The notes below the pieces were generated by a model. That model was not told the DNA's origin, searched no databases, and was given only the letters and a program-made list of their open reading frames with translations. A program made the translations under genes and the position numbers. A DNA stretch of 32,116 nt from a virus. Taxonomy: Duplodnaviria; Caudoviricetes. The first letter of the stretch is position 1. Every line of letters starts with the position of its first letter. This document shows positions 6,271-32,116 of this stretch, one piece after another. The DNA lies in the IMG/VR virus record IMGVR_UViG_3300023180_009605, positions 1 to 32,116 of that record, one strand, 5' to 3'.

Positions 6271-6271
6271 T

Positions 6272-7519: not shown

Positions 7520-7525
7520 GTTCGA

Positions 7526-7554
7526 ATATTACTTGATTTTTTTTCTTAGTAAAA
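7526..7554 (-). promoter_or_regulatory. sigma70-like promoter TTTTAC-N17-TAATAT, likely leaderless
   Basis: Sits in the 37-nt gap; the -10 box ends 6 nt before the ATG at 7519; same architecture recurs at 8450 and 19968. Confidence 0.55.
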
Positions 7555-7556
7555 AT

Positions 7557-8420: not shown

Positions 8421-8449
8421 TTTTATCTCTCGTACAATTAATGCAATAA

Positions 8450-8478
8450 AATATAGGAAAACTAACTAAAAAGTTTAA
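8450..8478 (-). promoter_or_regulatory. sigma70-like promoter TTAAAC-N17-TATATT
   Basis: Located in the gap upstream of the nuclease TTG start, with an exact 17-nt spacer. Confidence 0.5.
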
Positions 8479-9416: not shown

Positions 9417-9423
9417 TTTTCTC

Positions 9424-11152: not shown

Positions 11153-11158
11153 AAAATT

Positions 11159-13324: not shown

Positions 13325-13337
13325 AGAAAAGTTTAAT

Positions 13338-14866: not shown

Positions 14867-14870
14867 TTTC

Positions 14871-16064: not shown

Positions 16065-16072
16065 GTGTTGCC

Positions 16073-16954
16073 TTATACTTCCCTCAAGAGTCTTTCTAAA
16101 TAATTTTTATAATCGTTAGAGCCGCAATTTTCAATAAAATTTATCAAAGTTTTCTTAGAAGTATAACCGCATCTGTAGGCGATTTCATGAATATTTCCAA
16201 TCATAAAGCCCTGCCTATTTTCGACGCTTCTTATAAAATTAGTAGCCTCAAAAAAGCTTTCAAACGTACCGGTGTCAAACCATGCGTGTCCTCTTCCAAG
16301 CTTCACTACATCTAAAGAATTTTCCTGTATGTACAAGTTGTTTAAGTCAGTTATTTCAAGCTCTTTTCTTTCTGATGGCCTTAGAGCTTTTGCTTTTTCA
16401 ATGCACGTATTGTCATACACGTAAAAACCTGTGACGGCCCAGTTTGTTTTTGGATCTTTAGGCTTTTCTTGTATTTGAATCACCTTTTTGTTTTCATCTA
16501 TCTCCAAAACTCCGTAGTCTTCAGGATTCTTGACCGGATAACCATAAACAACGGCGCCTGTTTTTTTCTTATTTACAGCTTCGATCCCTTCTTGGATATG
16601 TTCACTTAGCTCGTTACCATAGAATATGTTATCTCCTAATGCTAAACATACAGAGCTGTTTCCAATAAATTGCTCTCCTATCAAAAAAGACTCCGCTATC
16701 CCTCTAGGTGACTTTTGAACATCATATGATAACTTGATGCCTATTTCAGTGCCGTTACCTAAAAGACTTTGAAAAACTTCTTTATTTTTCTCATTTGTTA
16801 TTATTAGAACTTCTTTAATACCTGCCAACAGCATCATTGATAGTGGATAATATATCATAGGCTTGTTGTAAATGGGAAGCAACTGTTTTGAAATACAGGC
16901 AGTCATTGGATAAAGTCTTGATCCGGATCCTCCGGCTAAAATTATTCCTTTCAT
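16073..16954 (-). CDS. rmlA: glucose-1-phosphate thymidylyltransferase
   Basis: MKGIILAGGSGSRLYP, SKQLLPIYNKPMIYYPL, LGDNIFYG, EKP, R.ELEITD, and GRG.AW.DTGT. Confidence 0.97.
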   Translation of the reverse strand: MKGIILAGGSGSRLYPMTACISKQLLPIYNKPMIYYPLSMMLLAGIKEVLIITNEKNKEVFQSLLGNGTEIGIKLSYDVQKSPRGIAESFLIGEQFIGNSSVCLALGDNIFYGNELSEHIQEGIEAVNKKKTGAVVYGYPVKNPEDYGVLEIDENKKVIQIQEKPKDPKTNWAVTGFYVYDNTCIEKAKALRPSERKELEITDLNNLYIQENSLDVVKLGRGHAWFDTGTFESFFEATNFIRSVENRQGFMIGNIHEIAYRCGYTSKKTLINFIENCGSNDYKNYLERLLREV

Positions 16955-16958
16955 TATT

Positions 16959-17900
16959 TCACTTTCTATAAAATTCTAACGTTTCTAAAAGACAGACATC
17001 AAATTCACTTTGTTTTAGATTCAATATTTTTTTCATCTTATCGGATCTTATTGAATATCTTTTGTCATGACCTTTTCTGTCTTCTATAAACTTGACTTTT
17101 TCTTTCCAATCAAAGTCTAGATTTTTACAAATCTTTTTTATTATGTCAATATTGGTCATTTCATTGGAAAATGTTATATTGTAAGTTTCATTTAAAGAAG
17201 AGTTTAGCCACAAATTATAGATTACCCTAACGTTATCTTTGACGTACAACCAGTCTCTGATGTTTTTTCCATCTCCGTACACAGGGACTTTTTTGCCTTC
17301 AAATAAAGAGTTAAAAATAGTCGGAAGAAATTTTTCTTTATTTTGTCTTGGGCCAAAATTATTTGAAGGTCTGACAATTATGTATTCGATTTTGTGTGTG
17401 TTGGCATAAGCCCTTATAAGATGCTCAGAAGCTGCTTTTGTTGCAGAATATGGATTTTTAGGATCCAGTGAGTCTGACTCTAGAGAAGAACCTGCCTCAA
17501 TTGATCCATATACTTCATCTGTAGATATGTGAAATAATTTCACACTGTTTTCCTTACATACATTGAGAAGTGAAACTACACCATTGACGTTAGAATTAAT
17601 AAAAGGTGTCACATCCTTTATGGAATTGTCGACATGAGTTTCGGCAGCAAAATTAAAAATCCACTTGACTTGATTCTCTTTGCAAAGGCCGCTTATAAAT
17701 TCTTGGTCTCTAATGTCTTTTTCAAAAAACTTAAAATTTTTACTTCTTAAAGCATCAGATAAATTTTCCTTGTTTCCTGCATAAGTCATTGAGTCAATTC
17801 CTATGACTTCAATGCCCATTGATAAGAAAAGATCGACAGCATGACTTCCAATAAAGCCTGCACAGCCTGTAATGATTACTGTCTCTTTTTTAGAATTCAT
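16959..17900 (-). CDS. rmlB: dTDP-glucose 4,6-dehydratase
   Basis: TGCAGFIGS, TYAGN, NFAAETHVDNSI, HISTDEVYG, PYSATKA, SNNFGP.Q..EK, and DRKGHDKRY. Confidence 0.95.
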   Translation of the reverse strand: MNSKKETVIITGCAGFIGSHAVDLFLSMGIEVIGIDSMTYAGNKENLSDALRSKNFKFFEKDIRDQEFISGLCKENQVKWIFNFAAETHVDNSIKDVTPFINSNVNGVVSLLNVCKENSVKLFHISTDEVYGSIEAGSSLESDSLDPKNPYSATKAASEHLIRAYANTHKIEYIIVRPSNNFGPRQNKEKFLPTIFNSLFEGKKVPVYGDGKNIRDWLYVKDNVRVIYNLWLNSSLNETYNITFSNEMTNIDIIKKICKNLDFDWKEKVKFIEDRKGHDKRYSIRSDKMKKILNLKQSEFDVCLLETLEFYRK

Positions 17901-18834
17901 TAATTAGATTTCCTGACATTTTTACAGCTTCAATTATTTTCTTTACTTCATCTTCTGTTAGTTTTTCATGAAACGGAATCGAAACTGTTGTTTTTTCCTT
18001 TGATTCTGATAGGCTCATATCAGAGTTGCAAGAAGTTATTTTTTCATACGCTTTCATTTTATGAGCACAGTAGTAATGTATTCCAGTGGACACATTTTCT
18101 TTTTTCATCTTTTCAATAAAATCTTTTCTGTTCGTCACATCTATTCTATAGAGATGGTAGCTACTATTTTCATAACCAAATGCATCGTTATATCTACTTC
18201 TAATTTCTTCTAGTCTGCTGTTTTTTTCTTTAATTTTCTTAAAATTCTCAATTGCAATTTTCGCCTGAAATGACGATAAATACATTTTCCATCCTGGAAA
18301 CTTTAGATTTCTATTCCAGTTTTCTTGACTATAAGTCATACCATTTAGCGATGCTTCCCTAAACCAATTTATTTTTGATTCATCATTAGAAAAGATCATG
18401 CCTCCGTCTAAACTACCGATAGGCTTTGTTGGATAGAAACTGTAAAACATCAGATCTTCATCATTGCACTCTTTAGTAAATTGATTTTCAACTACTTTTT
18501 GAGCTGAGTCTACTATCTTGTAGTTTTCAAACGTGTGTAAAATGTAAGAATCTCCTACCCAATCAACGTCATTAATAAATTCAACTTTGTTCCCGGCATT
18601 TAAAGTTGCATTAACCACTACAGGAGGAATCATTGAAGGTATTTTAAAATTCTCTCCTTTTCCTAGACTGGCCAAGAATATTGCATTTGTTGCTGATGAT
18701 AGACCACACGCGTATTTCGCTCCAACAAATTCACAAAGCATATCTTCTAGCTCTTTAACGTGATAACTGTGCAGTGCATGACTGAATTCGCTGGTGTCTA
18801 TTTTGTAGTCGTTTATGTTAAAAAGTTGTATCAT
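17890..18834 (-). CDS. DegT-family PLP aminotransferase, divergent and internally shortened
   Basis: SSATNAI, IVDSAQ, YSFYPTKPIGSLDGGM, GWKMY, TGIHY, and VSIPFH. Confidence 0.8.
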   Translation of the reverse strand: MIQLFNINDYKIDTSEFSHALHSYHVKELEDMLCEFVGAKYACGLSSATNAIFLASLGKGENFKIPSMIPPVVVNATLNAGNKVEFINDVDWVGDSYILHTFENYKIVDSAQKVVENQFTKECNDEDLMFYSFYPTKPIGSLDGGMIFSNDESKINWFREASLNGMTYSQENWNRNLKFPGWKMYLSSFQAKIAIENFKKIKEKNSRLEEIRSRYNDAFGYENSSYHLYRIDVTNRKDFIEKMKKENVSTGIHYYCAHKMKAYEKITSCNSDMSLSESKEKTTVSIPFHEKLTEDEVKKIIEAVKMSGNLINEF

Positions 18835-19946
18835 TTTAAAATTTCCTTGAGGACATCACAAACATACTTGAGATCGTCATCAGTCATATTAGGAGATCCT
18901 GGCAAATTGATACCTCTAGAAGAAACATCGTATGCGTTTTTATTTAGTGCGCTGTATTTCTTCTCTTGGCTGAAGGCAGGTATCGAAGACAAAGGATAGA
19001 AAAAGGGTCTAACTGGTACATTTTTCTTCTCAGCTTCGCTTATAATACTGTGCTTATCTATGTTGTATTTTTTTCCAAAAACTACACCGGTGATCCACGC
19101 ACCGTTATAAACTTCCTCATTGTCTGTATTGAATATTGCATCAATATCTTTTAAATTTTCTTTATAGAAGTTCATATGATATCTTTTGATCCCTACTAAT
19201 TCTTCAATTCTTTCAAATTGAGCCAAACCTAAAGCTGCTTGCAAATTAAAGGGCATGAACTTGTAACCAACAATGTCATTGAAATAAGGCTTAGTTTCTG
19301 GTCCTCTTCCGTGGTCTCTTAGCTTGACACACTTTTCATACAAGAGATCGTCATCCAACAAAAGCATTCCGCCCTCACCTGTAGACATCGTTTTTGTGTT
19401 GTGAAAACTAAACGTAGAACCTATTCCAAAAGATCCAGCTCGCTTACCTTTGTATATAGACCCTAGAGCTTCTGCTGCGTCTTCGATAAGGTGTATATTT
19501 CTATCTTTACATATTTTTTCTATCGATGCCATCTCAGGCATATTACCAAACAAATCAACTGCTATCACAGCTTTAGTTTTATCTGTAATGCATTCTTCAA
19601 TGTTTTTTGATGTTATACACCAACTCACAGGATCGATGTCACAGAAGACTGGTTTCGCCCCGACATAAGTTACCGGTGAAGCTGATGCTATCCACGTGCA
19701 TTCCGGAACAATAACTTCGTCTTCTGGTCCTATGCCCAGACCCATTAGCAATAGGTGAAGTGCACTAGTGCAGTTAGTAGTCATCAAAGCATGCTTTCTG
19801 CCGTGATAAGACGCGAATCTTTTTTGTAACTCTTCGCAGTAGTAGTACTTTTTATCTCCGTACCATCCGTTCCAAAGAGCATCTAAGACGTATTTTTCTT
19901 CAAGCTTAGTTATGTGAGTCCCAGCAGCGTGTATATTTCTTTTCAT
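18831..19946 (-). CDS. DegT-family PLP aminotransferase (perosamine synthase/VioA-like)
   Basis: TNCTSALHL, DEVIVP..TWIAS, IEDAAEALG, FSFHNTKTMSTGEGGM, and RPFFYPLS; AGGAG RBS. Confidence 0.92.
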   Translation of the reverse strand: MKRNIHAAGTHITKLEEKYVLDALWNGWYGDKKYYYCEELQKRFASYHGRKHALMTTNCTSALHLLLMGLGIGPEDEVIVPECTWIASASPVTYVGAKPVFCDIDPVSWCITSKNIEECITDKTKAVIAVDLFGNMPEMASIEKICKDRNIHLIEDAAEALGSIYKGKRAGSFGIGSTFSFHNTKTMSTGEGGMLLLDDDLLYEKCVKLRDHGRGPETKPYFNDIVGYKFMPFNLQAALGLAQFERIEELVGIKRYHMNFYKENLKDIDAIFNTDNEEVYNGAWITGVVFGKKYNIDKHSIISEAEKKNVPVRPFFYPLSSIPAFSQEKKYSALNKNAYDVSSRGINLPGSPNMTDDDLKYVCDVLKEILK

Positions 19947-19967
19947 TTTTGAACTCCTAGACCTACA

Positions 19968-19996
19968 AATATATTTCTAAAACAAAAAGAGTATAA
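19968..19996 (-). promoter_or_regulatory. sigma70-like promoter TTATAC-N17-TATATT
   Basis: Located in the 59-nt gap, upstream of an AGGAG RBS and the ATG at 19946; third copy of the motif. Confidence 0.55.
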
Positions 19997-20005
19997 GGAT
20001 TGGAT

Positions 20006-20758
20006 CTATTCTTCGTATATATCGATATTAATGTAATATTTTTTTCCATTTAAAAAAAAGAAGCTAGATTCTTTTTTCGAAAAAGTTCTTCCTCTCATTA
20101 TGTTTATCAAGTCAAGAGCTTTGTATTTCTTTTCTAGATCTATTCTACTGTGTATTTCTATTTCTTTGCCATAATGAAAAGTGCTTTTTTCCGAATTTTG
20201 AGGAGTGCCGGCTATATTATCTTCTCTGATCTTGGGATACCACTCTTTGAAAAGTTCTATCATTTCTTCTAAAGACTTTTGATATAAACTTTCCCCGGTA
20301 GCTGTTATATCAAACTCAATCTTTTTCTGAGCTATGATTTTTCCATCGTCTATTCCGGAAGTTATATAATGAATAGAAACACCAAAATCATTTTCTTCAA
20401 CTATGGACCAATAATAAGGATGCTTTCCTCTAGATATCGGTAGAAAACTAGGGTGCAGATTGATAATGCCTTGGTTAACGCAAGATAAGGTCTCTTCCTT
20501 TATAATTTCAGGCCACCACAAAAGAAACACCTGCTCGATCTTCTTACGCTTTAATTCTTCTATAAATTCTCTAGAATTTGCACTAGTTCTTCTTAGACAA
20601 TGTATCCCCATGTCTTTCAGATCCTGTGTTATCTCTGATTCATATTTGTCGTTCTTAGATGTTATAGCTAAGTCTATAGGATATTCTGTGTCCTTGAGAT
20701 ACTTTACCAGATCTTTTCCAACATAGTTTGCAGCACAAATTGCAATTTTCTTTTTCAT
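20006..20758 (-). CDS. sugar N-formyltransferase (VioF/WbtJ/WlaRD-like)
   Basis: INLHPSFLP..RG.HP..WSI, GVSIH...GIDDG.II, and C-terminal IDL......DLIN..R..TF. Confidence 0.88.
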   Translation of the reverse strand: MKKKIAICAANYVGKDLVKYLKDTEYPIDLAITSKNDKYESEITQDLKDMGIHCLRRTSANSREFIEELKRKKIEQVFLLWWPEIIKEETLSCVNQGIINLHPSFLPISRGKHPYYWSIVEENDFGVSIHYITSGIDDGKIIAQKKIEFDITATGESLYQKSLEEMIELFKEWYPKIREDNIAGTPQNSEKSTFHYGKEIEIHSRIDLEKKYKALDLINIMRGRTFSKKESSFFFLNGKKYYINIDIYEE

Positions 20759-21414
20759 ATTTGTATGTCTTTATTGAATTTGGCTTTTGTTCTAGGTAAA
20801 TTCATCTGATCCTGTGATATTTTCGACCAATACATTACGCCTAGTGTCTTTCTAGACATACCCTTTGTGATTGTTCTTACACCGTGCCAAGAATTTCCGG
20901 AACATTTAAAAACATTCAACCGGTTAAACTTGTAGGGAAGCCTAGCTTCATTTTCTTTTCCATCATGAACAATCAAGTCGAAAGATTCATCATAAACCTC
21001 TGAAATACAAAGTACTGCGCTGTACTCTCTTTTCCAGTCTAAATTTATACCATGTATTTCAGCGTCTACATGCAATCCTAAATGACCTCCTTCACCGTTT
21101 TGGTTGGGTGTCAGCATCATTCCTCCTCCATAATGACTCATGTCTGGAAATGTAGAAGTTTTAAGTTCTTTAAAATATTCATCAGGATCAAAATTAAGGG
21201 CAATATAATCTAGCACTGCCAAAGACTCAGGAGTTGAAAGTCTTGGTATTTTAGAGCAGTACTGTACTTGACCTGAACTGCTTTGGTACTTAACCCATTC
21301 CTCATCCTTCATTTTTTCAAAGCTTTCTGACGCCGCTCTAACAAGAGATTTCGAGGGTATAAAGTCATCTATAGAAAGAGCAGGAAAAGGAACATCTATC
21401 TTATTTATTTTCAT
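20755..21414 (-). CDS. 2OG-Fe(II) oxygenase superfamily protein
   Basis: GGHLGLHVD (HxD), FNRL, SWHGV (distal His), and RKTL (2OG-binding Arg). Confidence 0.8.
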   Translation of the reverse strand: MKINKIDVPFPALSIDDFIPSKSLVRAASESFEKMKDEEWVKYQSSSGQVQYCSKIPRLSTPESLAVLDYIALNFDPDEYFKELKTSTFPDMSHYGGGMMLTPNQNGEGGHLGLHVDAEIHGINLDWKREYSAVLCISEVYDESFDLIVHDGKENEARLPYKFNRLNVFKCSGNSWHGVRTITKGMSRKTLGVMYWSKISQDQMNLPRTKAKFNKDIQI

Positions 21415-22133
21415 TTTTTCTCAAACACAAAATTTAACAATGTTTTAATTCTATTCTTCTCAGGATATTTTTTTAATCCTTCGAAAGACTTGTTGTTAGT
21501 AATATCCTGTGATATTTCTTTCTTTATGCATTTATAGCCTTTTGCTTCTATAGTCTTGATTAATTCAGCAGAGTTTATGAACCAGTAGGGTATTTTTTCA
21601 TCTCCCCAGTATTGATATGTTAAAAAAGTATTTATTGGTCCGGCGGCCGTATCACATAGAACTATTTTGTCGGGTTTTTTTTCACATATCTCTTCTAGAG
21701 TAGCCTTCCAGTCTTTAAAATACTGGAGTGCTGTTCTCACGTAGCAAAGGTCGATATCTTCTGTGCAGCTTGACAGCTCCTTGTAAAAGAAAAGCTCTTT
21801 GTGTTCTTTGTAAAAAGTTCTAGCAGAATCTACAACTTTAGGTACTTCAACTATGTTGTATTTTAGATTTTTGGTAGTTTGACTTCGAAGAGGATGGTAA
21901 GAAAGACCAAATCCTCCTCCTAAGTCTAAGATGATCACAGAGTTTTTTTCTATTTTTTCGATCTCGGATATAAGAAGTTTATTTCTTTCTTTTGATATTT
22001 CTATTTCGTCAGAAATGTTTCTTATTCTGGTTTTTTGCTTTTCGACCCAGTCACTATTATCGTAAGAACCAGCATCATTATCTTTTTTAGAATATGAATC
22101 TTGTACTTTACTTGACCAACCCTTGGAGTACAT
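21411..22133 (-). CDS. class I SAM-dependent methyltransferase (putative sugar methyltransferase)
   Basis: ILDLGGGFG (motif I), YNIVEV, TALQY, and IPYWFIN. Confidence 0.8.
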   Translation of the reverse strand: MYSKGWSSKVQDSYSKKDNDAGSYDNSDWVEKQKTRIRNISDEIEISKERNKLLISEIEKIEKNSVIILDLGGGFGLSYHPLRSQTTKNLKYNIVEVPKVVDSARTFYKEHKELFFYKELSSCTEDIDLCYVRTALQYFKDWKATLEEICEKKPDKIVLCDTAAGPINTFLTYQYWGDEKIPYWFINSAELIKTIEAKGYKCIKKEISQDITNNKSFEGLKKYPEKNRIKTLLNFVFEKK

Positions 22134-22551
22134 TCTCTTCTCTCTTTTTTTTCATTATTTCACAGTACTCAGACCAGTCCTCTATGTAGTCAGTCTTATC
22201 ATAGGGTGTATCTGCAATTACTAACAAGACCGTGTCGGGAGTCATGTATATTTGCTCATCCCAAATCAAGTTAGGGATAAAGAGCGCATCTGTAGGTCTA
22301 TTTAAAGTCCAGTCTCCGGCGTTTATGCCGTCTTTACATTTAACAAAACATTCTCCTTTGATGCATATCAGTATTTGATTTGTTTTAAAGTGAGAATGCT
22401 TACCTCTAGTCCTTCTATCTGGAACGTCAGACACATAAAATATTCTAGAAGGACTAATAGGTAGATCAGAAAACTCTATGGGAAACAAAGATCCTCTAAC
22501 GTCACTATGATCATTTATTTTAATTAGTCTTACATCACTTACTGAATGCAT
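22108..22551 (-). CDS. dTDP-6-deoxy-3,4-keto-hexulose isomerase (FdtA/QdtA/WxcM-like cupin)
   Basis: D.RGSL, RIFYV..VP...RGKHSH, L.IP.LIW, and VLLVIAD..Y...DYI. Confidence 0.9.
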   Translation of the reverse strand: MHSVSDVRLIKINDHSDVRGSLFPIEFSDLPISPSRIFYVSDVPDRRTRGKHSHFKTNQILICIKGECFVKCKDGINAGDWTLNRPTDALFIPNLIWDEQIYMTPDTVLLVIADTPYDKTDYIEDWSEYCEIMKKKREENVLQGLVK

Positions 22552-23212
22552 TTTTCTTTAACTCGTCGTAAAATTCTATGTCTGATTTGCAAATTTCTCT
22601 AAAAACCTCTCTAGTTTCTCTATCCCAAAAGTCATTAAATCTAATTGGATTTTCTTCTCTTAGAAATAAAATTCGGTCTGTTATTCCAGACTTTCCTTGT
22701 GCTTTTATTTTTTTGTCTATTAACTCAAGTTGACTTCTAGGTCTAGAAAAGTCTAAAACGTAGTCTACACCTAAGGAACCGTCAGATTCTTTTAGGTAAG
22801 ATTGATAGACATTTGGGTTAAACGCAGAATATTTAGCATCTATAACATTTTCTCTTAACCAAGTAACTAGACCTAGGTCGGATACATCACCTACCGATTC
22901 ACCTTTTACCATGGGTGCCCAATAATTTAAAACAAAATCTCTAAAATGTTCATGACTCAACCTGTGATTAATTTCTGGTATTCTTTTCTTTGATGTTAAT
23001 TGTTTATAAGTGGATGCAAATCTATCAAAAGGATCTCTTAAAAAACAAAACTTTGTAAAGGAGTCCCATTCAACGTCTTTGTGAAAAACTCTTAAATCAG
23101 GTATTCCGATGTGAGGATCACCGGATGGTGGTGCAAAAACACTCATACTTAATGCTGTACCAGCGGTTTTTGGAATATGTACGAATATCAAACCTTGCTC
23201 TTTAGATATCAT
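22535..23212 (-). CDS. sulfotransferase family 2 protein
   Basis: FVHIPKTAGT (5'-PSB) and FCFLRDPFDRFASTY (3'-PB). Confidence 0.85.
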   Translation of the reverse strand: MISKEQGLIFVHIPKTAGTALSMSVFAPPSGDPHIGIPDLRVFHKDVEWDSFTKFCFLRDPFDRFASTYKQLTSKKRIPEINHRLSHEHFRDFVLNYWAPMVKGESVGDVSDLGLVTWLRENVIDAKYSAFNPNVYQSYLKESDGSLGVDYVLDFSRPRSQLELIDKKIKAQGKSGITDRILFLREENPIRFNDFWDRETREVFREICKSDIEFYDELKKNAFSK

Positions 23213-23638
23213 CTATTTTTCCTCTGTTGCCCAAGTTTCACCAAAATGTCCTGGTTTAACTTTCCACTCATCACACGTTGAATATTCCTCTGTTAACGAA
23301 TAAAACATTATTGATTCATCTTGAAGCGCTTTGTATCCGTGCCAAACTCCAGGTGGGATCTCTAGAACTCTTGAGTTTTTGTCTGAAAGATATTCCCATT
23401 TTACTTCTGTTGTTCCATCTTCTTTCTCAAACCCTAGACCTACTTTAAAAGAACCTTTAATGCACACCCAATAATCTGTCTGTTTCTTGTGTCTATGCCA
23501 AGCGACAACATGATCTTTTGAATTTACATAAGAAATGTTTATCTGGCCTTGAACATTAGGAAAAGTCATAAAAATTCTTTGAGCTCTATCATCTTCGTGG
23601 TAGTTTAAAGAATGTTCTTTTTTAGTAGTATATTTCAT
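23213..23638 (-). CDS. RmlC-like cupin (dTDP-4-dehydrorhamnose 3,5-epimerase family)
   Basis: HEDDR, Q.NIS, AWHRHKKQTD, and LEIPPGVWHGYKAL. Confidence 0.8.
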   Translation of the reverse strand: MKYTTKKEHSLNYHEDDRAQRIFMTFPNVQGQINISYVNSKDHVVAWHRHKKQTDYWVCIKGSFKVGLGFEKEDGTTEVKWEYLSDKNSRVLEIPPGVWHGYKALQDESIMFYSLTEEYSTCDEWKVKPGHFGETWATEEK

Positions 23639-24338
23639 TCTTATGCTCCTCTATTAAATCTAAGATGCTTGTATCTGCTAGAATTTTTGCTTCTTCCCAG
23701 TCATACAAACAAGTCCCACCATGGATTTGCATTCCTTCCGACTGAACTTTTGACACCCAAGATATTGTGTATTCTTCTTTAGAATTTCTTAAATCATCAA
23801 TTCTATCAATTATCTCCAGCTTCTTTTCTTTCGTCACGTCTATTTGAAGATCTAAACATATGTCCTCAATTAATTTTTCTTTGTTATTTAAGATTTCATT
23901 AAAATGAATAATTCTCTTAGTAAGGAGTTTTGATTCTTCAATGTTTGACCATGTCTTAAAGATATTGATGTTTTGTTTTAGTATTTTTAGAATTTTTGAT
24001 TGATTTAATTTTAAACCTCTCTCTTTTTTAATAAGCATCCCGGCGGCGCATTGTCTTAATGGCCTGTATGAAATGTAAAGATGACTCTTTCGGCTGCATG
24101 CAAACCCCAGGTCTTTGAGTTGTTTTTCTTTAGGCTTTTCGTGGCATTTTATAATAGGGCATATGTTCGAGCCTATGGGTCCTCTTTTACATCCTAGATA
24201 TCTACTAGATCTTCCGGAGAAGTGTCCGTAGTGAATATCAGATTTTTGGTATTTCTCTTCTAACAAAAATCTTACTAGATTGTACAAGGCTGTTGAACCT
24301 GAGCTATATTGGCCTGCGGTTATGATGCAAGGTTTCAT
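23622..24338 (-). CDS. divergent sulfotransferase-like (P-loop) protein
   Basis: TAGQYSSGSTALYN (5'-PSB-like), IIKCH, and YISYR; the canonical RSGST is altered. Confidence 0.55.
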   Translation of the reverse strand: MKPCIITAGQYSSGSTALYNLVRFLLEEKYQKSDIHYGHFSGRSSRYLGCKRGPIGSNICPIIKCHEKPKEKQLKDLGFACSRKSHLYISYRPLRQCAAGMLIKKERGLKLNQSKILKILKQNINIFKTWSNIEESKLLTKRIIHFNEILNNKEKLIEDICLDLQIDVTKEKKLEIIDRIDDLRNSKEEYTISWVSKVQSEGMQIHGGTCLYDWEEAKILADTSILDLIEEHKNEIYY

Positions 24339-25519
24339 TATTTTACCTCGCTTACGAATGGAACATGTGTGATAAATACTCCTCCTCTTGACAGAAAGTC
24401 TTTTTCTTTTTTGACGATCTCGTCTTTAAAATTCCATGCCCCTAAGAAAGCTACGTCTACTGATTTATCGAATCCTTCAGTGTCGGAAACAACTGGAATC
24501 TTCGAACCTGGTGCATATTTTCCTTGTTTGTCAGGTGTGTTGTCTACGATGTATTCAATTAAATTTTCGTTAATATTACAATAGTTGAAGACAGTCGTTG
24601 ATTTTGAAGTAGCACCATAGCTTATTATTTTCTTTCCTTGATCTTTAAATGTTTTCAAGACTTTTAAAAGATCATCTTTGGATTTTTTTACTCTTTTGGC
24701 GAAAGCAACATAGGTCGCAAAGTCATTCAGATTCTCATAATCTTCATCTAAAAAAGCTTTCTCAACAGAAGGCTCTATTTCTCTTTGACTTTCTTTCTTT
24801 TTAGCATATATTCTATTTGATCCTCCGTGTATTTCTATATCTTCTACTTTAAAAATTTCTAAGCCGGCTTTTTCAAGTATTTTACTAAGTGAAGTCACAG
24901 AAAAAATATGTGCATGCTCGTCATATATCTGATCGTAGGAGTTTCTCTTTATCATTTGTAAGAGAGACGGATCTTCAAAAATAAAAACTCCCTCAGATTC
25001 TAAAACTTCTGATATATTTCTAAAAGCATCTTCGATTTCAGGAATATGACACATACAGTTAGCAGAAAAAATTAAGTCAAATTTTTCATTGTTTGACTTC
25101 ATCTCTTCTACCAAGTCTTTGTTCCAAAAATTATCATATGTTTTATAGCCTAATTTTCTGGTAATGTCTCCAAAATTAGTACATGGTTCAACAGACATAG
25201 CCTGCGTTGTTGTAAAGTTTTTAAGAAATACTCCATCATTACTGCCTATTTCTAAGACCTTGTCTGTTTGAAAGTTTTTCTTAATATTTTCTGCAGTATT
25301 TTTAAAATGCTCCCTCATAGTCTTAGATGCGGATGAAAGATAGACGTATTCATCGTTAAACATCATCTCTAAGTCAACAAATTTTTCTAATGAGACTAGC
25401 TTTGTTTCTTCATCAAAAACGACTTTGAGATCAAACAAGTATTCTTCTTCTTCTTTGCTTTTAGTAAACTTGTTTGCTATCGGCTGTTTTCCTAAGTCTA
25501 AAAATGTCTTTTTTGTCAT
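24338..25519 (-). CDS. NDP-hexose C3-methyltransferase family (TcaB9/NovU-like)
   Basis: FLDLG.QPIAN.F, VLEIGSNDG, YDQIYDEH, HGGS.R, YGA.SK, D.TP.KQG, and GAWNF. Confidence 0.9.
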   Translation of the reverse strand: MTKKTFLDLGKQPIANKFTKSKEEEEYLFDLKVVFDEETKLVSLEKFVDLEMMFNDEYVYLSSASKTMREHFKNTAENIKKNFQTDKVLEIGSNDGVFLKNFTTTQAMSVEPCTNFGDITRKLGYKTYDNFWNKDLVEEMKSNNEKFDLIFSANCMCHIPEIEDAFRNISEVLESEGVFIFEDPSLLQMIKRNSYDQIYDEHAHIFSVTSLSKILEKAGLEIFKVEDIEIHGGSNRIYAKKKESQREIEPSVEKAFLDEDYENLNDFATYVAFAKRVKKSKDDLLKVLKTFKDQGKKIISYGATSKSTTVFNYCNINENLIEYIVDNTPDKQGKYAPGSKIPVVSDTEGFDKSVDVAFLGAWNFKDEIVKKEKDFLSRGGVFITHVPFVSEVK

Positions 25520-25520
25520 C

Positions 25521-26585
25521 TTATCTCACTTTTTCTCCAAAGCCTATGTATCGTTTCACAATCACTTCGGTCCGAGTTTTCTCTTTAACGTCTTTCATTA
25601 TCTTAAGCCCTTCTTTCCATGTTTTGTTACCAAAATCTTTCTGAGCTTTCTTTTTCATTTCATTGCAAATTTCTGACCAGTTTATGATAAATTCTTCTGT
25701 TTCTGTATTGATGGCATACGGATATGATTCATCAATAAGCTCTCTATTGGCAGGGTCTAAAGAAGTTATTATGTTGGCATTACATGCAGCTGCTGTAGAA
25801 ACTTTTCCACCCGTCTTAGTTACCCATTGTTCATAAGGTAAATTAAGTTTTTCTTTTTTGCCTCTCAAAAGAGTCAAAGGTGATCTTACAGCATAGTGAC
25901 AACTATGCTTCAAAGGTGAATCATGACTTTCAATTTGCAACTGCGTATCGTAGTGACATCCTTCAGAAAATTCTTTCAAAAAAGTATTATATTTTTCTGA
26001 TGATGATTTTTTTGATGAAGAAGAGATTAGCTCTCTGAGGGGATGAAAATATCCGGACGTGTAGTCCCATTCATCCCTTAAACCTAGGTCTCCTTGACAC
26101 ATGTATCCTCTAGAATCTAGACTTCCACCAAAGTAAAGAGAGAAGTTTTTATGATTAAATTTATTAGACTTTTCTATAAAGATATCGTGATTCGCAGGTA
26201 TTACTTCAACATTTAAGCCTGGAAAATTATTTGACATTATTTTTTTAAATTCTTTGCTTCCTACTATCACTCCGGACAAGTGTTCTGCTCTGGATTTTAA
26301 AAACTCGCCTAAAGAAAATGATGTCATGTCACCAACGTAATAAAGAACAACACATTTGTTTTCCTTTAAAATCTCAGCAACTTGATGGTTTGGATTTTTT
26401 TTAAAGAATATGAGAAGGTCATTTTTATAGCTTCTTAAGTTTTCTAAGAGTTCATTGTATTCTAAGACATGCGACTCTTGTTCTAGAAAATTACTTGTGA
26501 CGTAGCAAGGCTGATAACAACCCATTGTTGCTCCTCCGCCGAATCGTTCGTACACATATACAATTCTTCTAAAACTACTTTTCAT
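25521..26585 (-). CDS. hypothetical protein, possibly divergent glycosyltransferase
   Basis: 354-aa ORF; segments IFFKK, YYVGD and TKTGGKVSTAAAC.ANII loosely resemble GT-B proteins; sits in the glycan cluster. Confidence 0.45.
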   Translation of the reverse strand: MKSSFRRIVYVYERFGGGATMGCYQPCYVTSNFLEQESHVLEYNELLENLRSYKNDLLIFFKKNPNHQVAEILKENKCVVLYYVGDMTSFSLGEFLKSRAEHLSGVIVGSKEFKKIMSNNFPGLNVEVIPANHDIFIEKSNKFNHKNFSLYFGGSLDSRGYMCQGDLGLRDEWDYTSGYFHPLRELISSSSKKSSSEKYNTFLKEFSEGCHYDTQLQIESHDSPLKHSCHYAVRSPLTLLRGKKEKLNLPYEQWVTKTGGKVSTAAACNANIITSLDPANRELIDESYPYAINTETEEFIINWSEICNEMKKKAQKDFGNKTWKEGLKIMKDVKEKTRTEVIVKRYIGFGEKVR

Positions 26586-27554
26586 CTACTGAACACCTAA
26601 CCTTTCCAAGGTTTGTTTCCAGTCTTTAAACTCAATAGACTTATCATCGATGTATGCCACAGCTCTCGGTTTTTCAGATGTTACTTTCGAAACGTATTGA
26701 GCTAGATCGTGTTTTTCTAGCCATTCCCAAACTAGCTCAATTCCGGTTTTTCCATTTACCAGACCTCTATCAGGCTTTGCCTTACATGTAAATACTATTA
26801 CCGAGTATTTTTCCGATAGATGTTTTAGAGCATCTCTTGCTCCTTCAACAGGATCATCGTAAATAGTTCCATCGTAATATCCTTTTGAACATTTGTGAAT
26901 CACTCCATCAAAATCAACACCTATGTTTATTTGTTCATCAGGATAACTGTGCTCTCTTATCTTTCCACCCTTCCAGTTGAGCTTTTCTAAGTCTTTGGGT
27001 GTATTTTTTCCAATAGGAGGACATTCTTTTCCGGATCCATGAGTTAGTTCATAAGTTAAAAGGAGAGTCAAGACTTCAGCAGTATGGTAATATTCTGCAC
27101 CTAACTCAATTACCGTTAAATTTGGTATTTTGACATTAAGTGGGCGACTAGAGATCATCGCGATTTTCATTCCTTGATCATTTGCCCACTGGAGTGCTTT
27201 TATCACATCTGTAGATGTTCCGGAAGACGAAACACCAAGAACTAGGGAATTTTCAAGCTGAAATTTTGTTCTGGTGCAAGTTCTTTGATTAAGCCATGTC
27301 ACCATCCACTGGTCAAATCCTACGTCATTGATTAGAGAGGTGGCAACAATTCCAGAACCTGGACACATTGCGTTTTTTGTTCCATTTGAAAGTCTAGTTA
27401 TATCGACTGCAGCGTGATCTGCAACTGCTAAGTTGCCTCCATGACCTAAGACAAATATTTCTCCAGAGCTGTTAAACTTTTCCTGAAGTTCTTTCCAGCT
27501 TTCACTATTTACTATACTGACAAATTTTTCGTCTAGATTTTCAAAGTTAAGCAT
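26586..27554 (-). CDS. SIS-domain sugar-phosphate isomerase (GmhA-like) fused to HAD phosphatase
   Basis: N-terminal GHGGNLAVADH and GVSSSGTS.DV..AL; C-terminal GVDFDGVIH (DxD), VFT, EKP..AYIDDK. The likely start is 27554 (GAGG upstream); the track start is 27569. Confidence 0.8.
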   Translation of the reverse strand: MLNFENLDEKFVSIVNSESWKELQEKFNSSGEIFVLGHGGNLAVADHAAVDITRLSNGTKNAMCPGSGIVATSLINDVGFDQWMVTWLNQRTCTRTKFQLENSLVLGVSSSGTSTDVIKALQWANDQGMKIAMISSRPLNVKIPNLTVIELGAEYYHTAEVLTLLLTYELTHGSGKECPPIGKNTPKDLEKLNWKGGKIREHSYPDEQINIGVDFDGVIHKCSKGYYDGTIYDDPVEGARDALKHLSEKYSVIVFTCKAKPDRGLVNGKTGIELVWEWLEKHDLAQYVSKVTSEKPRAVAYIDDKSIEFKDWKQTLERLGVQ

Positions 27555-28242
27555 TATCGTTTTCCTCATTCTTTTCTATCAAAGAAACTGTATCCATTCC
27601 GATGGCAATCATTCCGTAAGAATTGTATTTTTTAATTTGATTTTGTACATCTTTTGGTATATGAACAGCTCTTCTATTCTTAGGTATAAATTTTGCAAAT
27701 TTATCTAATGCTTCCTTGAATTCTTTGGTTTCAAAATTTCCAGGAGATCCTAAACTGGCGGAAAGATCATAAGGTCCGATAAGATAATAATCAAAGCAGC
27801 ATTTTGACAATTTTTCTATTTCTTCAATACCTTTTTTTGTCTCTATTTGTGCCACTAAAACTGGGGGCTCTTGTATAAGGCTTTTAAGACCCCACATGTT
27901 TTGTCTAACCAAACCCAGACCTCGATTTCCAGAATGTGTTGGGTAATTACAACGTTTTATAATTTTTTCAGCTCTTGAGACAGTTTCTATGGTTGAAAAA
28001 ATAACCCCATCGACGCCGGTGTCTAGACAGAGTCTTATTTTGTCTACAGTTGCTGTAGACAATCTTACAAAACATTTTTTATTTGAAAGTTTTATTACTT
28101 GTATGCATGAAACTAATGTTTCTGGATTAGGAAATCCATGCTCCATATCTAATACAACACCGTCAGAAGATCCTTGAGACATTATCTCTGATACGATAGG
28201 AGACGGTATTTGTTGCCACCTAAGTCTGATTTGATTCTGCAA
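27547..28242 (-). CDS. HpcH/HpaI class II pyruvate aldolase
   Basis: LDMEHG, VR, LDTG.DG, YP..G.RG, QIET..G, and IGPYDLS.SLG.PG. Confidence 0.9.
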   Translation of the reverse strand: MQNQIRLRWQQIPSPIVSEIMSQGSSDGVVLDMEHGFPNPETLVSCIQVIKLSNKKCFVRLSTATVDKIRLCLDTGVDGVIFSTIETVSRAEKIIKRCNYPTHSGNRGLGLVRQNMWGLKSLIQEPPVLVAQIETKKGIEEIEKLSKCCFDYYLIGPYDLSASLGSPGNFETKEFKEALDKFAKFIPKNRRAVHIPKDVQNQIKKYNSYGMIAIGMDTVSLIEKNEENDNA

Positions 28243-28873
28243 TTTTTTTTACTAAGCTCCAGTCTTCTTCAGTATCTATGTCCATACTTTCTATGAAGTC
28301 AGTTTTATAAAAGTAAGGATAAGAACCAACTCTCATATTTGTTTTCATAAAATTATCGGATTTAAATGCGTAAAAAAGTGAATTTTCTTCATATAGCTCA
28401 GGTAAGTCTTGTGTTTGCTGTAGGACTAAAGGATTGTGATTTGATGGGCAATAACCATAATCTTCTTTTCTCCAAAATCTACTTTGATGAACATTACATG
28501 AAACTATTGCGTCATATTTTTTTTGTGTAAGAGACTTTATTTCCTCTAGAGTCTCAGACTTTAAAAATGGGCTAGTTACGTGAACTTGACATATCCATTC
28601 GTTTTTTATATTGTTGCATATTAAAAAATTTCTAATCAAATCACAGACTGATACTTTGTCTCCTATCAGACTTTCTTCTCTTTTGTATGCTATTACGTTT
28701 TCATAATTACTGTTTAAGAATCCTAAAATTTCTAAGCTGTCTGTGTCTACAAAAACTTCAAAGTTCCTTAATTTATCAAAAAGTCTTTGATATAAAGGGA
28801 TACCTTCTAGGAGTCTAAAGTTTTTTCTTGGGACTCTCTGAGAGTTCTCTTTGATTGGAACAAATATCTTCAT
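28220..28873 (-). CDS. acylneuraminate/ulosonic acid cytidylyltransferase (NeuA/CMAS family)
   Basis: VPIKENSQRVPRKN, VDTDS, HVTSPF, QTQDLP..Y.EN, and DIDTEEDW. Confidence 0.88.
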   Translation of the reverse strand: MKIFVPIKENSQRVPRKNFRLLEGIPLYQRLFDKLRNFEVFVDTDSLEILGFLNSNYENVIAYKREESLIGDKVSVCDLIRNFLICNNIKNEWICQVHVTSPFLKSETLEEIKSLTQKKYDAIVSCNVHQSRFWRKEDYGYCPSNHNPLVLQQTQDLPELYEENSLFYAFKSDNFMKTNMRVGSYPYFYKTDFIESMDIDTEEDWSLVKKIAESNQT

Positions 28874-28879
28874 GAGAAG

Positions 28880-29611
28880 TTACATTTCCTTGAATTTTTC
28901 TCTGTCTAAATAATCCATTTTTAATATTTTGTCCAGGACTACATCTAATCTTACATTTTTAATTCTAGGCAAAGATTCCTTTGCAAATTTCCACATGTTT
29001 TTTTGAACGTGCCTTTTAGAATTAAAACACTGTAATGTAAATTCTTCCGGTGTTTTGTTCTGCTCTTTTTCAACACCTTCTTTTACTCCGTCGACAAAAC
29101 CGTCTAAATAAAAACTAAAACCGTAAATTGATAAATTCTTAGGCTCCATTCGAATTAAGTCATAAATTGCCATGTAACCTGTATTTGGTCTGCACTCTAC
29201 TTTAACAGCTAACTCATTATGAAAGTGATGGTCAACTAGTCTAACAGGTATTAGTTCATTTAAAGCTTTAACTTTTTCTAAGTCAATAAGATCATGAAAT
29301 CTTGTTTCATTTGAAAGACCCTTCATATTAGAAGAAGGAGGAACACATATATGCTTTATTCCCAATTCTTTTAAAAAATATGGGTCTATTTTTCCTGCAT
29401 TGGCCTGTTTTTCTATCATGCATGAATATAAAACATCAGTTCTAGAACCTACATTTTTCGAAAATTTTTCAACTGACTCATAAGATCTATTAATTCTAAC
29501 TACTACATCATGATCATCAATTTCAGATCCAAATTCGTGATTCATCATGTAGGCAGCCGGCCCTACTATAGCTACCTTTTTGTTTTTAATAAATTCTTTA
29601 AAATTATTCAT
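28880..29611 (-). CDS. GT29 sialyltransferase-like glycosyltransferase
   Basis: Sialylmotif L-like VAIVGP......GSEIDDHDVVVRIN.......KNVGSRT, motif S-like PNTGY.........LSIYGFSF, and a downstream His (KRHVQ). Confidence 0.75.
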   Translation of the reverse strand: MNNFKEFIKNKKVAIVGPAAYMMNHEFGSEIDDHDVVVRINRSYESVEKFSKNVGSRTDVLYSCMIEKQANAGKIDPYFLKELGIKHICVPPSSNMKGLSNETRFHDLIDLEKVKALNELIPVRLVDHHFHNELAVKVECRPNTGYMAIYDLIRMEPKNLSIYGFSFYLDGFVDGVKEGVEKEQNKTPEEFTLQCFNSKRHVQKNMWKFAKESLPRIKNVRLDVVLDKILKMDYLDREKFKEM

Positions 29612-29612
29612 T

Positions 29613-30347
29613 TCAGTATTTCATAAAGTTATTTTTGCAATATTCTAAAGCAGCTTCCATTGATTCAACTTCATAGGTGCCCTGGTTTATTCTATTGTCT
29701 GCATGCATGTGATATATTCTAGGCTTAAGATGTTCTTCACCAAACTCATGATGAAATCTATCTTGTTTCTCTCTGTTTGCAACGCTTCGGATGTTGTATT
29801 CAGGAGGTAAAACATACATCGAGACATCGCTGTTCCATACTGATATTCTAAAAGAAGGTTGATCCCATGGAACTACTCGATAATACTTGTAGAAATTTTC
29901 TCGCCACGCATCAAAAAGCTTCTCAATCTTTTCGTTCTTCTTGAAAGCGATAACGCCTGTATTGATTTCAGAAAAGGAATATGGGATCGATCCGTATTCT
30001 GGAATGCTTTCCTGAAATTTCTTTCTTTTTCTAGCAAGGTCGTGAACCAATGCCATATCATATTTTTCTAATATACCAAACAAATCATCTAGTGAATGAT
30101 TAATAATAGTATCAGTGTCTAAAAATATTGTCTGGTCATATGGTGTAAATTTGATATAGTCAATCTTGGGTCTTAGATGCCTAACTTCCATCAGCTGAAC
30201 ATTATCGACGTACTCACAGTCAAAAGGTTTATCTGTAAAAACTGTGATGTTGAGGTCTGGATTATATTTTTTTACTGACTCTGCAGAAAATCTTAACTCT
30301 TTCATGAAGCATTCACCAAATGCTATGTAAAGTATCCCTCTATTCAT
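29613..30347 (-). CDS. GT-A glycosyltransferase (GT8 / nucleotide-diphospho-sugar transferase-like)
   Basis: SAESVK, TIFLDTDT (DxD), EINTGVIAF, WDQPSFR, LPPEYN, and IYH. Confidence 0.85.
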   Translation of the reverse strand: MNRGILYIAFGECFMKELRFSAESVKKYNPDLNITVFTDKPFDCEYVDNVQLMEVRHLRPKIDYIKFTPYDQTIFLDTDTIINHSLDDLFGILEKYDMALVHDLARKRKKFQESIPEYGSIPYSFSEINTGVIAFKKNEKIEKLFDAWRENFYKYYRVVPWDQPSFRISVWNSDVSMYVLPPEYNIRSVANREKQDRFHHEFGEEHLKPRIYHMHADNRINQGTYEVESMEAALEYCKNNFMKY

Positions 30348-30348
30348 T

Positions 30349-31374
30349 TCATTCCTTTGTTATCTTTTCTAACTGGTTATACAATTTTTGTGCCCACTTA
30401 TGTGGGTTGTATTTTTCTTTAAAGTTCTCGTAGTATACTTCTGAAACTCTTTGTCTTTCTTTATGACAATTACTCAGCCTTCTTATCTCTTTTTCCCATG
30501 AATTTTCATCATGCGCAACACAATATTCTTGAGTACTTCCTAAGATTTCAAAACTACTAGGACTTAAGTCATGTATAACAGGAATTCCATGTTGATAAAA
30601 GACAAATGATCTTCCTGCATTAGTTTTGTTTTTCATCCTAATGATGTAATCAGTTTTTCCCCAACCTCTGTCTATATCTTCTATTTCACCTATTTGTGGT
30701 ATATAAAACTTCATGTCCGACACGTTGGGAACTATTCCTATATCACATGAATTTATTATCTTTGTCATGTTTTTTAAATCATAACCATGTGTTTCTATTT
30801 TTACACCACTCGGTCTACCAATCCTCCAATTGAAATTAGGATGACCGGTCACCACTACCAATGTTATGTCTATTTCTTTTGAAAGTTTTTCTAAGGCATT
30901 TTTAATAAATGGGTCAAATTTTGATAAGTGTGGGTAGTGACCGTGATAACAAATTCTTATGTTAGAATTTTTTTCATGCTTCTTGAGAGGTACATCTTCG
31001 AACTCTCTTTCGATAAGTGGATATATGAAAACATTGTCATAGCTTCTGAGTGACGTGTATTCTTCCAAGCTTCCTACAATGACAAAATCTATAAGTTCAT
31101 CTCTATAGTCACTATTGATGTTTATCACACCAAACAATGCATTGTCATTTATCTGCTTCACTTGACTTAAAAGCCTGTAACAACACTTGCCCATTATGAT
31201 TACGTCTGATTCTTTTAGTCTCTTGTCATCGGTTTTTGTTTTTCTTAAATCTAAAATTTCAGAATCAACGCTTATTTCTTTGAACGTCTTGCAAAGATCC
31301 CTAATCCAAATTCTATATGAACCTGTATTTTCGTCTGGGTTTGTTGTTACAAAAGTTATTTTCATTTTATTCAC
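30349..31374 (-). CDS. divergent GT-B glycosyltransferase
   Basis: TGSYRI, ICYHG, CDIGIVPN, and KNKTNAGR.......GIPVI.D. Confidence 0.7.
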   Translation of the reverse strand: MNKMKITFVTTNPDENTGSYRIWIRDLCKTFKEISVDSEILDLRKTKTDDKRLKESDVIIMGKCCYRLLSQVKQINDNALFGVININSDYRDELIDFVIVGSLEEYTSLRSYDNVFIYPLIEREFEDVPLKKHEKNSNIRICYHGHYPHLSKFDPFIKNALEKLSKEIDITLVVVTGHPNFNWRIGRPSGVKIETHGYDLKNMTKIINSCDIGIVPNVSDMKFYIPQIGEIEDIDRGWGKTDYIIRMKNKTNAGRSFVFYQHGIPVIHDLSPSSFEILGSTQEYCVAHDENSWEKEIRRLSNCHKERQRVSEVYYENFKEKYNPHKWAQKLYNQLEKITKE

Positions 31375-32116
31375 AGTACTTTTCTATGATTTGATAGACA
31401 TCATCGCAATATCTTTGATATGATGTGTGATATAATACGAATTCTCTAGGCGAATTTAGATTTTCTTTTCCAGAATGTTCAAAAAACCAATCTAGCTTTT
31501 CCATATAAGATGATGCAGCTTCTGGCTTTCTTACTAGATATTTTTCTGTCATGAAGTCAGTGTCTAGAACATGTAGCCTGGTATCATAGTGACTGGGTGT
31601 GTTGTGTGGTGAACCTATTACATGTGTATTACAGTAGAATGCTTCGTAATTTAATATTCCAGGACATTCATCCAAACTTAAATTAAGCATCACTTTTGTT
31701 CTAAGAAGACTTTCTAGAAACTCATTTTTTTGATAACTTCCGTAAGTTATTTCTTTGTAATTTATTTTTCTTTCATCTAAACCGAGAATGATATTTTTTC
31801 GAAAATCATCAAAATAGGTATCATATCTTCTTTTTTTTGAGTAAACTAGGCAGTCAATGTCTCTATCAGTTTCTTTTATATCTTCATCAAATATTTCCAG
31901 CCTCATACACTTATCTAAATGTGTAGAGAGATCTAATTTCTCTTTAGGTAAAAATTTCTTTACGTGTTGATTATAGAATTCAACCTGGTCTAACTGAATG
32001 TGAAACTTTGCCTTGTTGACAAGCCAATCATCCCATGCATCACTAATACCTATGTCAGGTTTGTCTAAAAGAACATTTGGACCTACTATGAATTTTTTAG
32101 TTTTGCCGAAGTGACT
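31367..32116 (-). CDS. glycosyltransferase-like protein, 5'-truncated by the window edge
   Basis: The frame stays open from the track start at 31906 to the window end (SHFGKTKKFIVGPNVLL...DKCMRLE). Motifs DCLVYSK.R, YGSY, and S.DE.PGI...EA are GT-B-like. Confidence 0.65.
   Translation of the reverse strand, partial: SHFGKTKKFIVGPNVLLDKPDIGISDAWDDWLVNKAKFHIQLDQVEFYNQHVKKFLPKEKLDLSTHLDKCMRLEIFDEDIKETDRDIDCLVYSKKRRYDTYFDDFRKNIILGLDERKINYKEITYGSYQKNEFLESLLRTKVMLNLSLDECPGILNYEAFYCNTHVIGSPHNTPSHYDTRLHVLDTDFMTEKYLVRKPEAASSYMEKLDWFFEHSGKENLNSPREFVLYHTSYQRYCDDVYQIIEKYCE

Follow-up and report, generated by a model that had tools for sequence, protein, structure and literature searches.

A cassette of four adjacent genes in an uncultured phage probably encodes a route to a cytidine monophosphate (CMP)-activated ulosonate that is independent of phosphoenolpyruvate (PEP) and based instead on an aldolase, with the sugar being attached to a phage-built glycan. 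The cassette occupies positions 26,586 to 29,611 of IMG/VR record IMGVR_UViG_3300023180_009605, a linear viral record (32,116 bases) that was analysed whole and is referred to here as the window, and it is real and conserved across many related viruses. In described routes, the skeletons of 3-deoxy-D-manno-octulosonic acid (Kdo), 2-keto-3-deoxynononic acid (Kdn) and the nonulosonates are made by PEP-dependent synthases, and genome surveys search for them via neuB and kdsA. An aldolase route had been proposed for these genes in an earlier sequence-only reading: the PEP-independent path to a CMP-ulosonate with GT29 is favoured by gene co-occurrence, while the products named there, and pyruvate as the certain donor, are not.

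The cassette consists of four intact minus-strand open reading frames (ORFs), and searches of ORFs, Pfam, NCBIfam and motifs agree with the identities first proposed for them: a GT29 (sialyltransferase-like) glycosyltransferase with predicted CMP-ulosonate transfer (28880..29611, 243 amino acids [aa]; Pfam PF00777, E 1.2e-9), a NeuA-like cytidylyltransferase of an uncharacterised clade designated NeuA-T (28220..28873, 217 aa; PF02348 [CTP_transf_3], E 1.3e-16), an HpcH/HpaI class II 2-oxo-acid aldolase with a TTG start (27547..28242, 231 aa; PF03328 [HpcH_HpaI], E 4.5e-15) and a SIS-HAD fusion (26586-27569, 327 aa). The CMP-transferase, aldolase and SIS-HAD genes overlap each other, and the GT29 gene ends 6 bases upstream of the CMP-transferase gene. 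As had also been noted from the sequence, the window lacks both synthases (0 matches to NeuB, PF03102; 0 to DAHP/KdsA, PF00793). In the proposed route, the SIS domain would convert a host ketose phosphate to an aldose phosphate, HpcH would add a 2-oxo acid to the aldose or aldose phosphate, and the HAD domain would remove the phosphate either before or after the aldol step. NeuA-T would then activate the product with cytidine triphosphate (CTP), drawing the reversible aldol reaction forward, and GT29 would transfer the CMP-activated ulosonate, probably to a virion glycan.

A survey of the co-occurrence of these families with and without neuB and kdsA, suggested as a check in the sequence-only reading, favours the aldolase route. 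Near-identical rows, and loci flanked on one side or the other by less than 5 kb, were dropped before the families in viral loci were counted. HpcH-centred viral loci numbered 77; removal of redundancy left 52, and 42 of these were fully flanked. A CMP-transferase is present in 39 of these 42, NeuA-T in 27, SIS in 26 and a 2-hydroxyacid dehydrogenase in 10; GT29 is found in 27 and an MptE/DUF115-like transferase in 14 (one or the other in 32), with NeuB in 3 and KdsA in 2. All four cassette families occur together in 21/42 loci, 18 of which have neither NeuB nor KdsA. The exact gene order of the window is found in 8 of 76 viral loci centred on HpcH, three of the 8 being near-identical. Because the order recurs and the four families co-occur, the grouping is not attributable to chance. 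A motif scan for viral NeuA-T identified 58 loci (2 without a matching ORF), 41 of them non-redundant and 30 with full flanks: HpcH is present in 25 of the 30, SIS in 15, and NeuB and KdsA in none. These NeuA-T counts, together with the occurrence of other aldolases in the same slot, make a PEP-independent route likely. The replacements are unrelated pyruvate-type aldolases, either DmpG-like (L072, L076-L078) or DHDPS-like (L005, L082).

Related loci show further arrangements. In L072 and L076-L078 (e.g. L076:2871-4559), the DmpG/HMGL-like domain is fused to a KdsB scoring above the NCBIfam cut-off and lies beside the same HAD phosphatase; this fusion is a second candidate PEP-independent route, with Kdo itself as a possible product. 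In L010 and L063, one island combines three CMP-transferases with HpcH, KdsA and NeuB as its three C-C-forming enzymes. A cupin, a short-chain dehydrogenase/reductase (SDR), a CMP-transferase of the PNSQDL type and SIS-HAD occur with no recognised C-C-forming enzyme in L033, L036, L038, L044, L163 and L165, and a fumarylacetoacetate-hydrolase-family gene occupies the synthase slot, directly after SIS-HAD and the CMP-transferase, in L043, L051, L062 and L067. A frequent insert between the CMP-transferase and HpcH (L008, L009, L011, L016, L017, L020, L023 and L024; e.g. L024:3751-5184) comprises a GT2, a fusion of HAD with a nucleotidyltransferase, and a small protein termed 'ISHRGN'; these genes may resemble capsule genes of the KfoD/BcbE type.

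The aldolase scores 56 bits against a Pfam cut-off of 25, with HpaI, GarL and YfaU as its PDB matches, and falls far under all NCBIfam cut-offs (87 bits versus 369 for HpaI). Two clade-specific positions, H194 (184/190 sequences) and Pro or Val196 (186/190), stand at G212 and L214 of AbHpaI; L214 presumably corresponds to L216 of YfaU. In AbHpaI, Leu214 lines the substrate cleft, and L216A is among the YfaU variants with a broadened donor range (PMC7610986). The catalytic set D32, E34, H35, R60, Q132, E134 and D159 is kept in 189-190 of the 190 sequences and agrees with that described for AbHpaI, an enzyme in which condensation is favoured approximately 40-fold (PMC8560999). Hydroxypyruvate was accepted in vitro by 19 of 571 class II aldolases screened (PMC7610986). 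Contigs of two archaeal-labelled metagenome-assembled genomes (MAGs; L083 and L243) encode an HpcH that shares 47-49% identity with that of the phage and may be either misbinned viral sequence or genuine transfers.

The best solved relatives of the CMP-transferase in PDB alignments are CMP-sialic acid synthetases, and its match to the KdsB family (22.7 bits) is far below the cut-off of 193. In a midpoint-rooted FastTree phylogeny of 210 CMP-transferases (near-identical rows removed; many inner nodes weak), NeuA-T forms a single clade with a local support of 0.93, separate from KdsB, NeuA and PseF. The CTP-binding motif and metal pair are retained, with S11, K17, N18, D198 and D200 invariant (the last two at NeuA Asp209/Asp211; roles as described in PMC2901514). 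At the positions of R12, Q104 and R165 in the Neisseria NeuA (NmCSS), the window enzyme has K8, H98 and T154 (alignment A3). Docking in NmCSS pairs the carboxylate with Arg165, and the R165A variant is inactive (PMC2901514). NeuA-T has two additional invariant arginines, R132 and R181; that these take over from Arg165 is only a guess. R132, S165 and R181, positions outside the motif by which the rows were selected, are common to all 87 NeuA-T rows, both HpcH-linked (38) and SDR-linked (49). The motif was used for genome scans because a scan with alignment A3 was dominated by PseF-like proteins, its top five matches alone being informative. In L401 and L405, a lone NeuA-T lies amid small-phage head and tail genes, with no synthase nearby.

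The N-terminal domain of the fusion (27000..27569, minus strand) is a GmhA-like SIS (phosphosugar isomerase) domain as judged by a profile comparison with PDB GmhA (E 1.7e-11). It is weak in Pfam and matches NCBIfam GmhA with an E of 1.6e-8 (34 bits versus a cut-off of 265). With the register set by alignment to a canonical GmhA in L317, H52, D56, E165 and Y173 lie at the GmhA metal/catalytic residues H61, E65, Q172 and H180, so that three of the four positions differ. Since H52, D56 and E165 are invariant (41/41 rows), the site looks remodelled rather than dead. Sedoheptulose 7-phosphate (S7P), which had been put forward as the GmhA substrate, is for the same three departures no safe substrate for this domain. 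The C-terminal HAD phosphatase domain (26586..26936, minus strand; weak HAD-IIIA match; phrog_1238, E 1.7e-15) keeps motifs I-IV (D219, D221, T261, K300, D308 and D309) in 36/36 full-length rows of alignment A1, the Thr being Ser in three, and is a separate gene in several relatives (L068, L070-L075). In an AlphaFold model of the fusion (predicted local distance difference test score 87), residues 201-209 form a low-confidence linker between two domains.

The Pfam match of the GT29 protein is limited to residues 11-61, or motif L (38.4 bits versus a cut-off of 23). L-, S- and VS-like sialylmotifs are present, the S and VS motifs having been read by eye in alignment A4, and G17, P18, D35, R39, N143, G164 and H201 are invariant among its 16 sequences (the window protein and 15 relatives). 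Plant GT29 proteins are proposed transferases of Kdo or 3-deoxy-D-lyxo-heptulosaric acid (Dha) (PMC5811610), so the presence of GT29 does not imply sialic acid.

Several observations weigh against the aldolase route, and the alternatives draw on them. The window record has a CheckV completeness of 14%, so the absence of NeuB and KdsA from the whole genome is not established, and the viral records are all fragments (4-83% complete). From 224 relatives of the SIS-HAD fusion in IMG/VR, 80 were taken for analysis, and the whole records behind 50 of these loci were searched. HpcH is present in 19 of the 50; 16 of these have neither NeuB nor KdsA, 3 have NeuB and 2 have KdsA, and in the three records with PEP-dependent synthases further CMP-transferases adjoin those synthases. 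A neuB or kdsA elsewhere in the genome, which the sequence-only reading had named as a possible donor source, is thus absent from most HpcH-positive records as far as these fragments extend. Among the 31 HpcH-negative records, all of them fragments, 22 have no NeuB, KdsA, DHDPS-like or HMGL-like gene, and the donor could be supplied by the host. One clade holds most phage pairs of NeuA-T and HpcH, so that the co-occurrence counts overstate independence. NeuA-T lacks the carboxylate-binding Arg165 of NmCSS. In cells, HpcH lies beside NeuA-T in only 4/78 loci, and NeuB lies within 6 kb in 21/78, although 12 of these 21 have their own second NeuA. It is improbable, and in our view the least probable account of the route, that NeuA-T and GT29 use a host-made ulosonate (Kdo, 2-keto-3-deoxygluconate [KDG] or 3-deoxy-arabino-heptulosonate [DAH]) while HpcH merely cleaves or recycles sugar acids. 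The low completeness of the record would allow for this, and described HpcH and GarL enzymes are catabolic, with HpcH acting best on small aldehydes (PMC7610986). However, the phage HpcH has no catabolic genes, such as those for transport or a dehydratase, in its company; its own gene overlaps the anabolic gene on each side, and the synthase slot is held by three unrelated aldolase families. Gram-negative hosts, moreover, produce their own CMP-Kdo, which would make a phage CMP-transferase redundant for Kdo.

It is also rather unlikely, though a little less so, that SIS-HAD and the CMP-transferase are the true unit, activating a neutral ketose or other non-aldol sugar (as a CMP-ketose) with HpcH as an accessory. 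Fused SIS-HAD loci numbered 63 (38 non-redundant, 29 with full flanks), and a CMP-transferase is near SIS-HAD in 29/29 whereas HpcH is present in only 16/29; SIS-HAD thus tracks CMP-transferases better than HpcH and is not dedicated to the aldolase. In 12 of the 29, a CMP-transferase is present but no C-C-forming enzyme was recognised out to 7 kb, a further point against the aldolase route, and most CMP-transferases beside SIS-HAD have no Arg at the Arg165 position. For NeuA-T, however, the fixed partner is HpcH, found in 13/13 SIS-HAD loci with NeuA-T, and SIS-HAD is optional: SIS is missing from 10/25 loci with NeuA-T and HpcH, which counts against a SIS-HAD unit as well as against the four-step route as drawn. 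Ser at the Arg165 position also occurs in PseF-type enzymes, NeuA-T has its two other invariant arginines, and cellular NeuA-T pairs with a 2-hydroxyacid dehydrogenase, which implies an alpha-keto acid. CMP-ketoses were not found in a literature search of listings and abstract openings, with subscription journals mostly outside it. The aldolase route therefore remains the reading that we prefer.

The nature of the sugar is best approached through NeuA-T in cells. An estimated 2300 stretches of GTDB prokaryotic genomes carry the NeuA-T motif. A scan of 4 of 64 parts gave at least 120 matches, rich in Anaerolineae; 80 were taken with flanks, and 78 were counted, without de-duplication, after excluding 2 that had no NeuA ORF. 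A 2-hydroxyacid dehydrogenase is present in 63 of the 78 loci, an SDR in 53, an MptE-like gene in 38 and KdsA in none. One SDR compared with the PDB is nearest to aldose/glucose 1-dehydrogenases, and for two SDRs in NCBIfam these families came first or near first, below the cut-off and by small margins; a regular expression for an SDR motif had 0/74 matches and was dropped. A lactonase is close to the SDR route in 5/97 screened loci, three of which are profile seeds, and so adds little to the case for it. The 2-hydroxyacid dehydrogenases fall into two clades, one SDR-linked and one mostly HpcH-linked (with three HpcH-free loci), and both types rank PGDH first among families. The simplest reading of the gene content is that cells would oxidise an aldose to an aldonate and then to a 2-keto-aldonate, an ulosonate that retains its 3-hydroxyl group. 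A fusion of NeuA-T with an aldose-dehydrogenase-like SDR is present in six viral loci (L374, L382, L409, L412, L420 and L426), four of which bear a giant-virus MAG label, and a 2-hydroxyacid dehydrogenase is close by in most; L426 additionally carries GT29 as well as lactonase-like and MptE-like genes.

These cellular partners point to 2-keto-aldonic (3-hydroxy) acids and make hydroxypyruvate a serious alternative donor: if the sugars of HpcH-linked and SDR-linked NeuA-T enzymes are alike, hydroxypyruvate would be the donor in the aldol step. Many phage loci have HpcH, NeuA-T and a transferase alone, and a 2-hydroxyacid dehydrogenase was looked for in the window and not found, which is a better fit to abundant host pyruvate. 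We give slightly better than even credence to pyruvate as the donor, with a 3-deoxy product, and a little under even credence to hydroxypyruvate with a 3-hydroxy 2-keto-aldonic product. More tentatively, and with considerable doubt, NeuA-T may be a widespread and so far undescribed family of CMP-2-keto-aldonate synthetases, for which cells and giant viruses oxidise an aldose (via SDR, lactonase and 2-hydroxyacid dehydrogenase) and phages use HpcH with hydroxypyruvate as its natural donor. If so, the phage particle would bear a coat of 3-hydroxylated 'sialic-like' sugar, and the natural, biosynthetic role of HpcH would be that of a hydroxypyruvate aldolase. The link made here is that an aldolase module and a dehydrogenase/SDR module are joined via one CMP-transferase clade.

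Within the aldolase route, the products originally named were those of pyruvate with aldoses derived from ribulose 5-phosphate (Ru5P), fructose 6-phosphate (F6P) or S7P, namely Kdo, Kdn and a 10-carbon 3-deoxy ulosonate. These lack support, the window CMP-transferase belonging to a separate clade that in cells is mostly found with an SDR and a 2-hydroxyacid dehydrogenase. We consider this set of products unlikely, and the 10-carbon ulosonate taken alone highly improbable. GmhA-type stereochemistry on Ru5P, F6P and S7P would give arabino/manno aldoses; a true KdsB, above its cut-off, is flanked by HpcH and SIS-HAD in L019; and a 2-hydroxyacid dehydrogenase that could provide hydroxypyruvate is missing from the window. 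Against them, the window enzyme is not KdsB and lies outside the NeuA and PseF clades, its sugar-site residues are common to NeuA-T members linked to an SDR and 2-hydroxyacid dehydrogenase, and the SIS site is altered from GmhA at E65, Q172 and H180. The product is most likely other than Neu5Ac (N-acetylneuraminic acid) and probably other than plain Kdo or Kdn; the sugar of the cassette is probably one so far undescribed.

The window is a fragment of a large uncultured myophage, a phage setting that the sequence-only reading had missed, with nearly every gene on the minus strand. Pfam and PHROG scans show a phage glycosylation island (5098..32116, minus strand) that holds the cassette; after it come genes for a late sigma factor and baseplate proteins. 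The late sigma factor and baseplate wedge genes lie at one end of the window, and their proteins have distant similarity (27-32% identity) to those of Immutovirus and Microcystis phage Mel-JY01. The island encodes epimerases, GT4s, aminotransferases and three further transferase types (formyl-, methyl- and sulfo-). Three DegT-type aminotransferases, one formyltransferase, WbqC and RmlA/RmlB-like genes are found at 12001-19946, and a second formyltransferase at 20006-20758; this gene set suggests that the phage may make several N-formylated amino sugars. Two glycosyltransferase-like genes, GT77/GT8-like (PF03407, E 3.2e-6) and GT4-like (PF13524, E 0.0017), lie at 29613..31374 on the minus strand; each belongs to a cluster present in 10 loci, directly upstream of GT29, and the pair are candidate builders of the acceptor glycan.

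An orthologous island in record G005 matches that of the window nearly gene for gene, is bounded at both sides and extends past the upstream end of the window by only three genes (two GT2s and one cupin). In this complete island, the aldolase, the CMP-transferase and GT29 are each present once, and a profile search of the whole G005 record found neither NeuB nor KdsA; KdsA (PF00793) was likewise not found in records G001 and G002. Long structural-looking genes precede the island in G002 and G005, which makes a virion glycan plausible as the acceptor. The closest relative, G002, also carries a trio of DUF444 (YeaH), SpoVR and PrkA genes (L432:5928-10371). A search of an INPHARED copy found the aldolase and the complete SIS-HAD fusion in none of its cultured phages, and the annotation of the glycan region of Immutovirus immuto has no such cassette genes.

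If the aldolase route is correct, it would escape genome surveys based on neuB and kdsA, an aldolase family known as catabolic would gain a biosynthetic role, and phages, bacteria and giant viruses would be expected to bear acidic sugars not yet known. The four small enzymes might also be of use in chemoenzymatic synthesis. A literature search that excluded most subscription journals and supplements found no published HpcH-based biosynthetic CMP-ulosonate route and no NeuA-T clade, and the available part of a paper on fructose in C. jejuni HS1 names no CMP donor (PMC7901785).

Among known systems, the cassette is closest in layout to the CMP-Kdo pathway, yet it belongs to neither the Kdo nor the nonulosonate pathways. 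Like the CMP-Kdo pathway, it has an isomerase, a C-C-forming enzyme, a HAD phosphatase, a CMP-transferase and a transferase; relative to KdsD-KdsA-KdsC-KdsB plus transferase, however, unrelated parts fill the first three slots. There is no PEP-dependent KdsA, the isomerase is GmhA-like and not KdsD/KpsF, the phosphatase is not of the KdsC type, and the transferase is a GT29. It shares with the Kdo version predicted for CroV and Fadolivirus a viral origin and an isomerase-phosphatase fusion, although the predicted viral Kdo pathways employ KdsA (PMC9614988). With the Kdn and Neu5Ac pathways (NeuB-type synthase, HAD, NeuA/CMAS and GT29), it has in common a NeuA-fold CMP-transferase, GT29 and a HAD phosphatase step, but no NeuB and no N-acetylmannosamine (ManNAc) genes, and the CMP-transferase has His for Gln104 and Thr for Arg165; the algal Kdn pathway of Prymnesium uses PEP (PMC6200933). 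The SIS domain resembles GmhA, its closest solved relatives, in the GxGG loop, His61 and the S-x-SG-x-S phosphate loop, and differs in E65D, Q172E and H180Y, in its fusion to HAD and in the lack of a heptose kinase or nucleotidyltransferase in the island. The aldolase keeps all catalytic and metal residues of the class II pyruvate aldolases HpaI/HpcH, GarL, YfaU/RhmA and SwHKA (a hydroxyketoacid aldolase), and some HpaI/YfaU/SwHKA-type aldolases take hydroxypyruvate and aldoses in vitro (PMC7610986); unlike these enzymes, it lies in a biosynthetic context and has His and Pro at the cleft-lining Gly and Leu positions.

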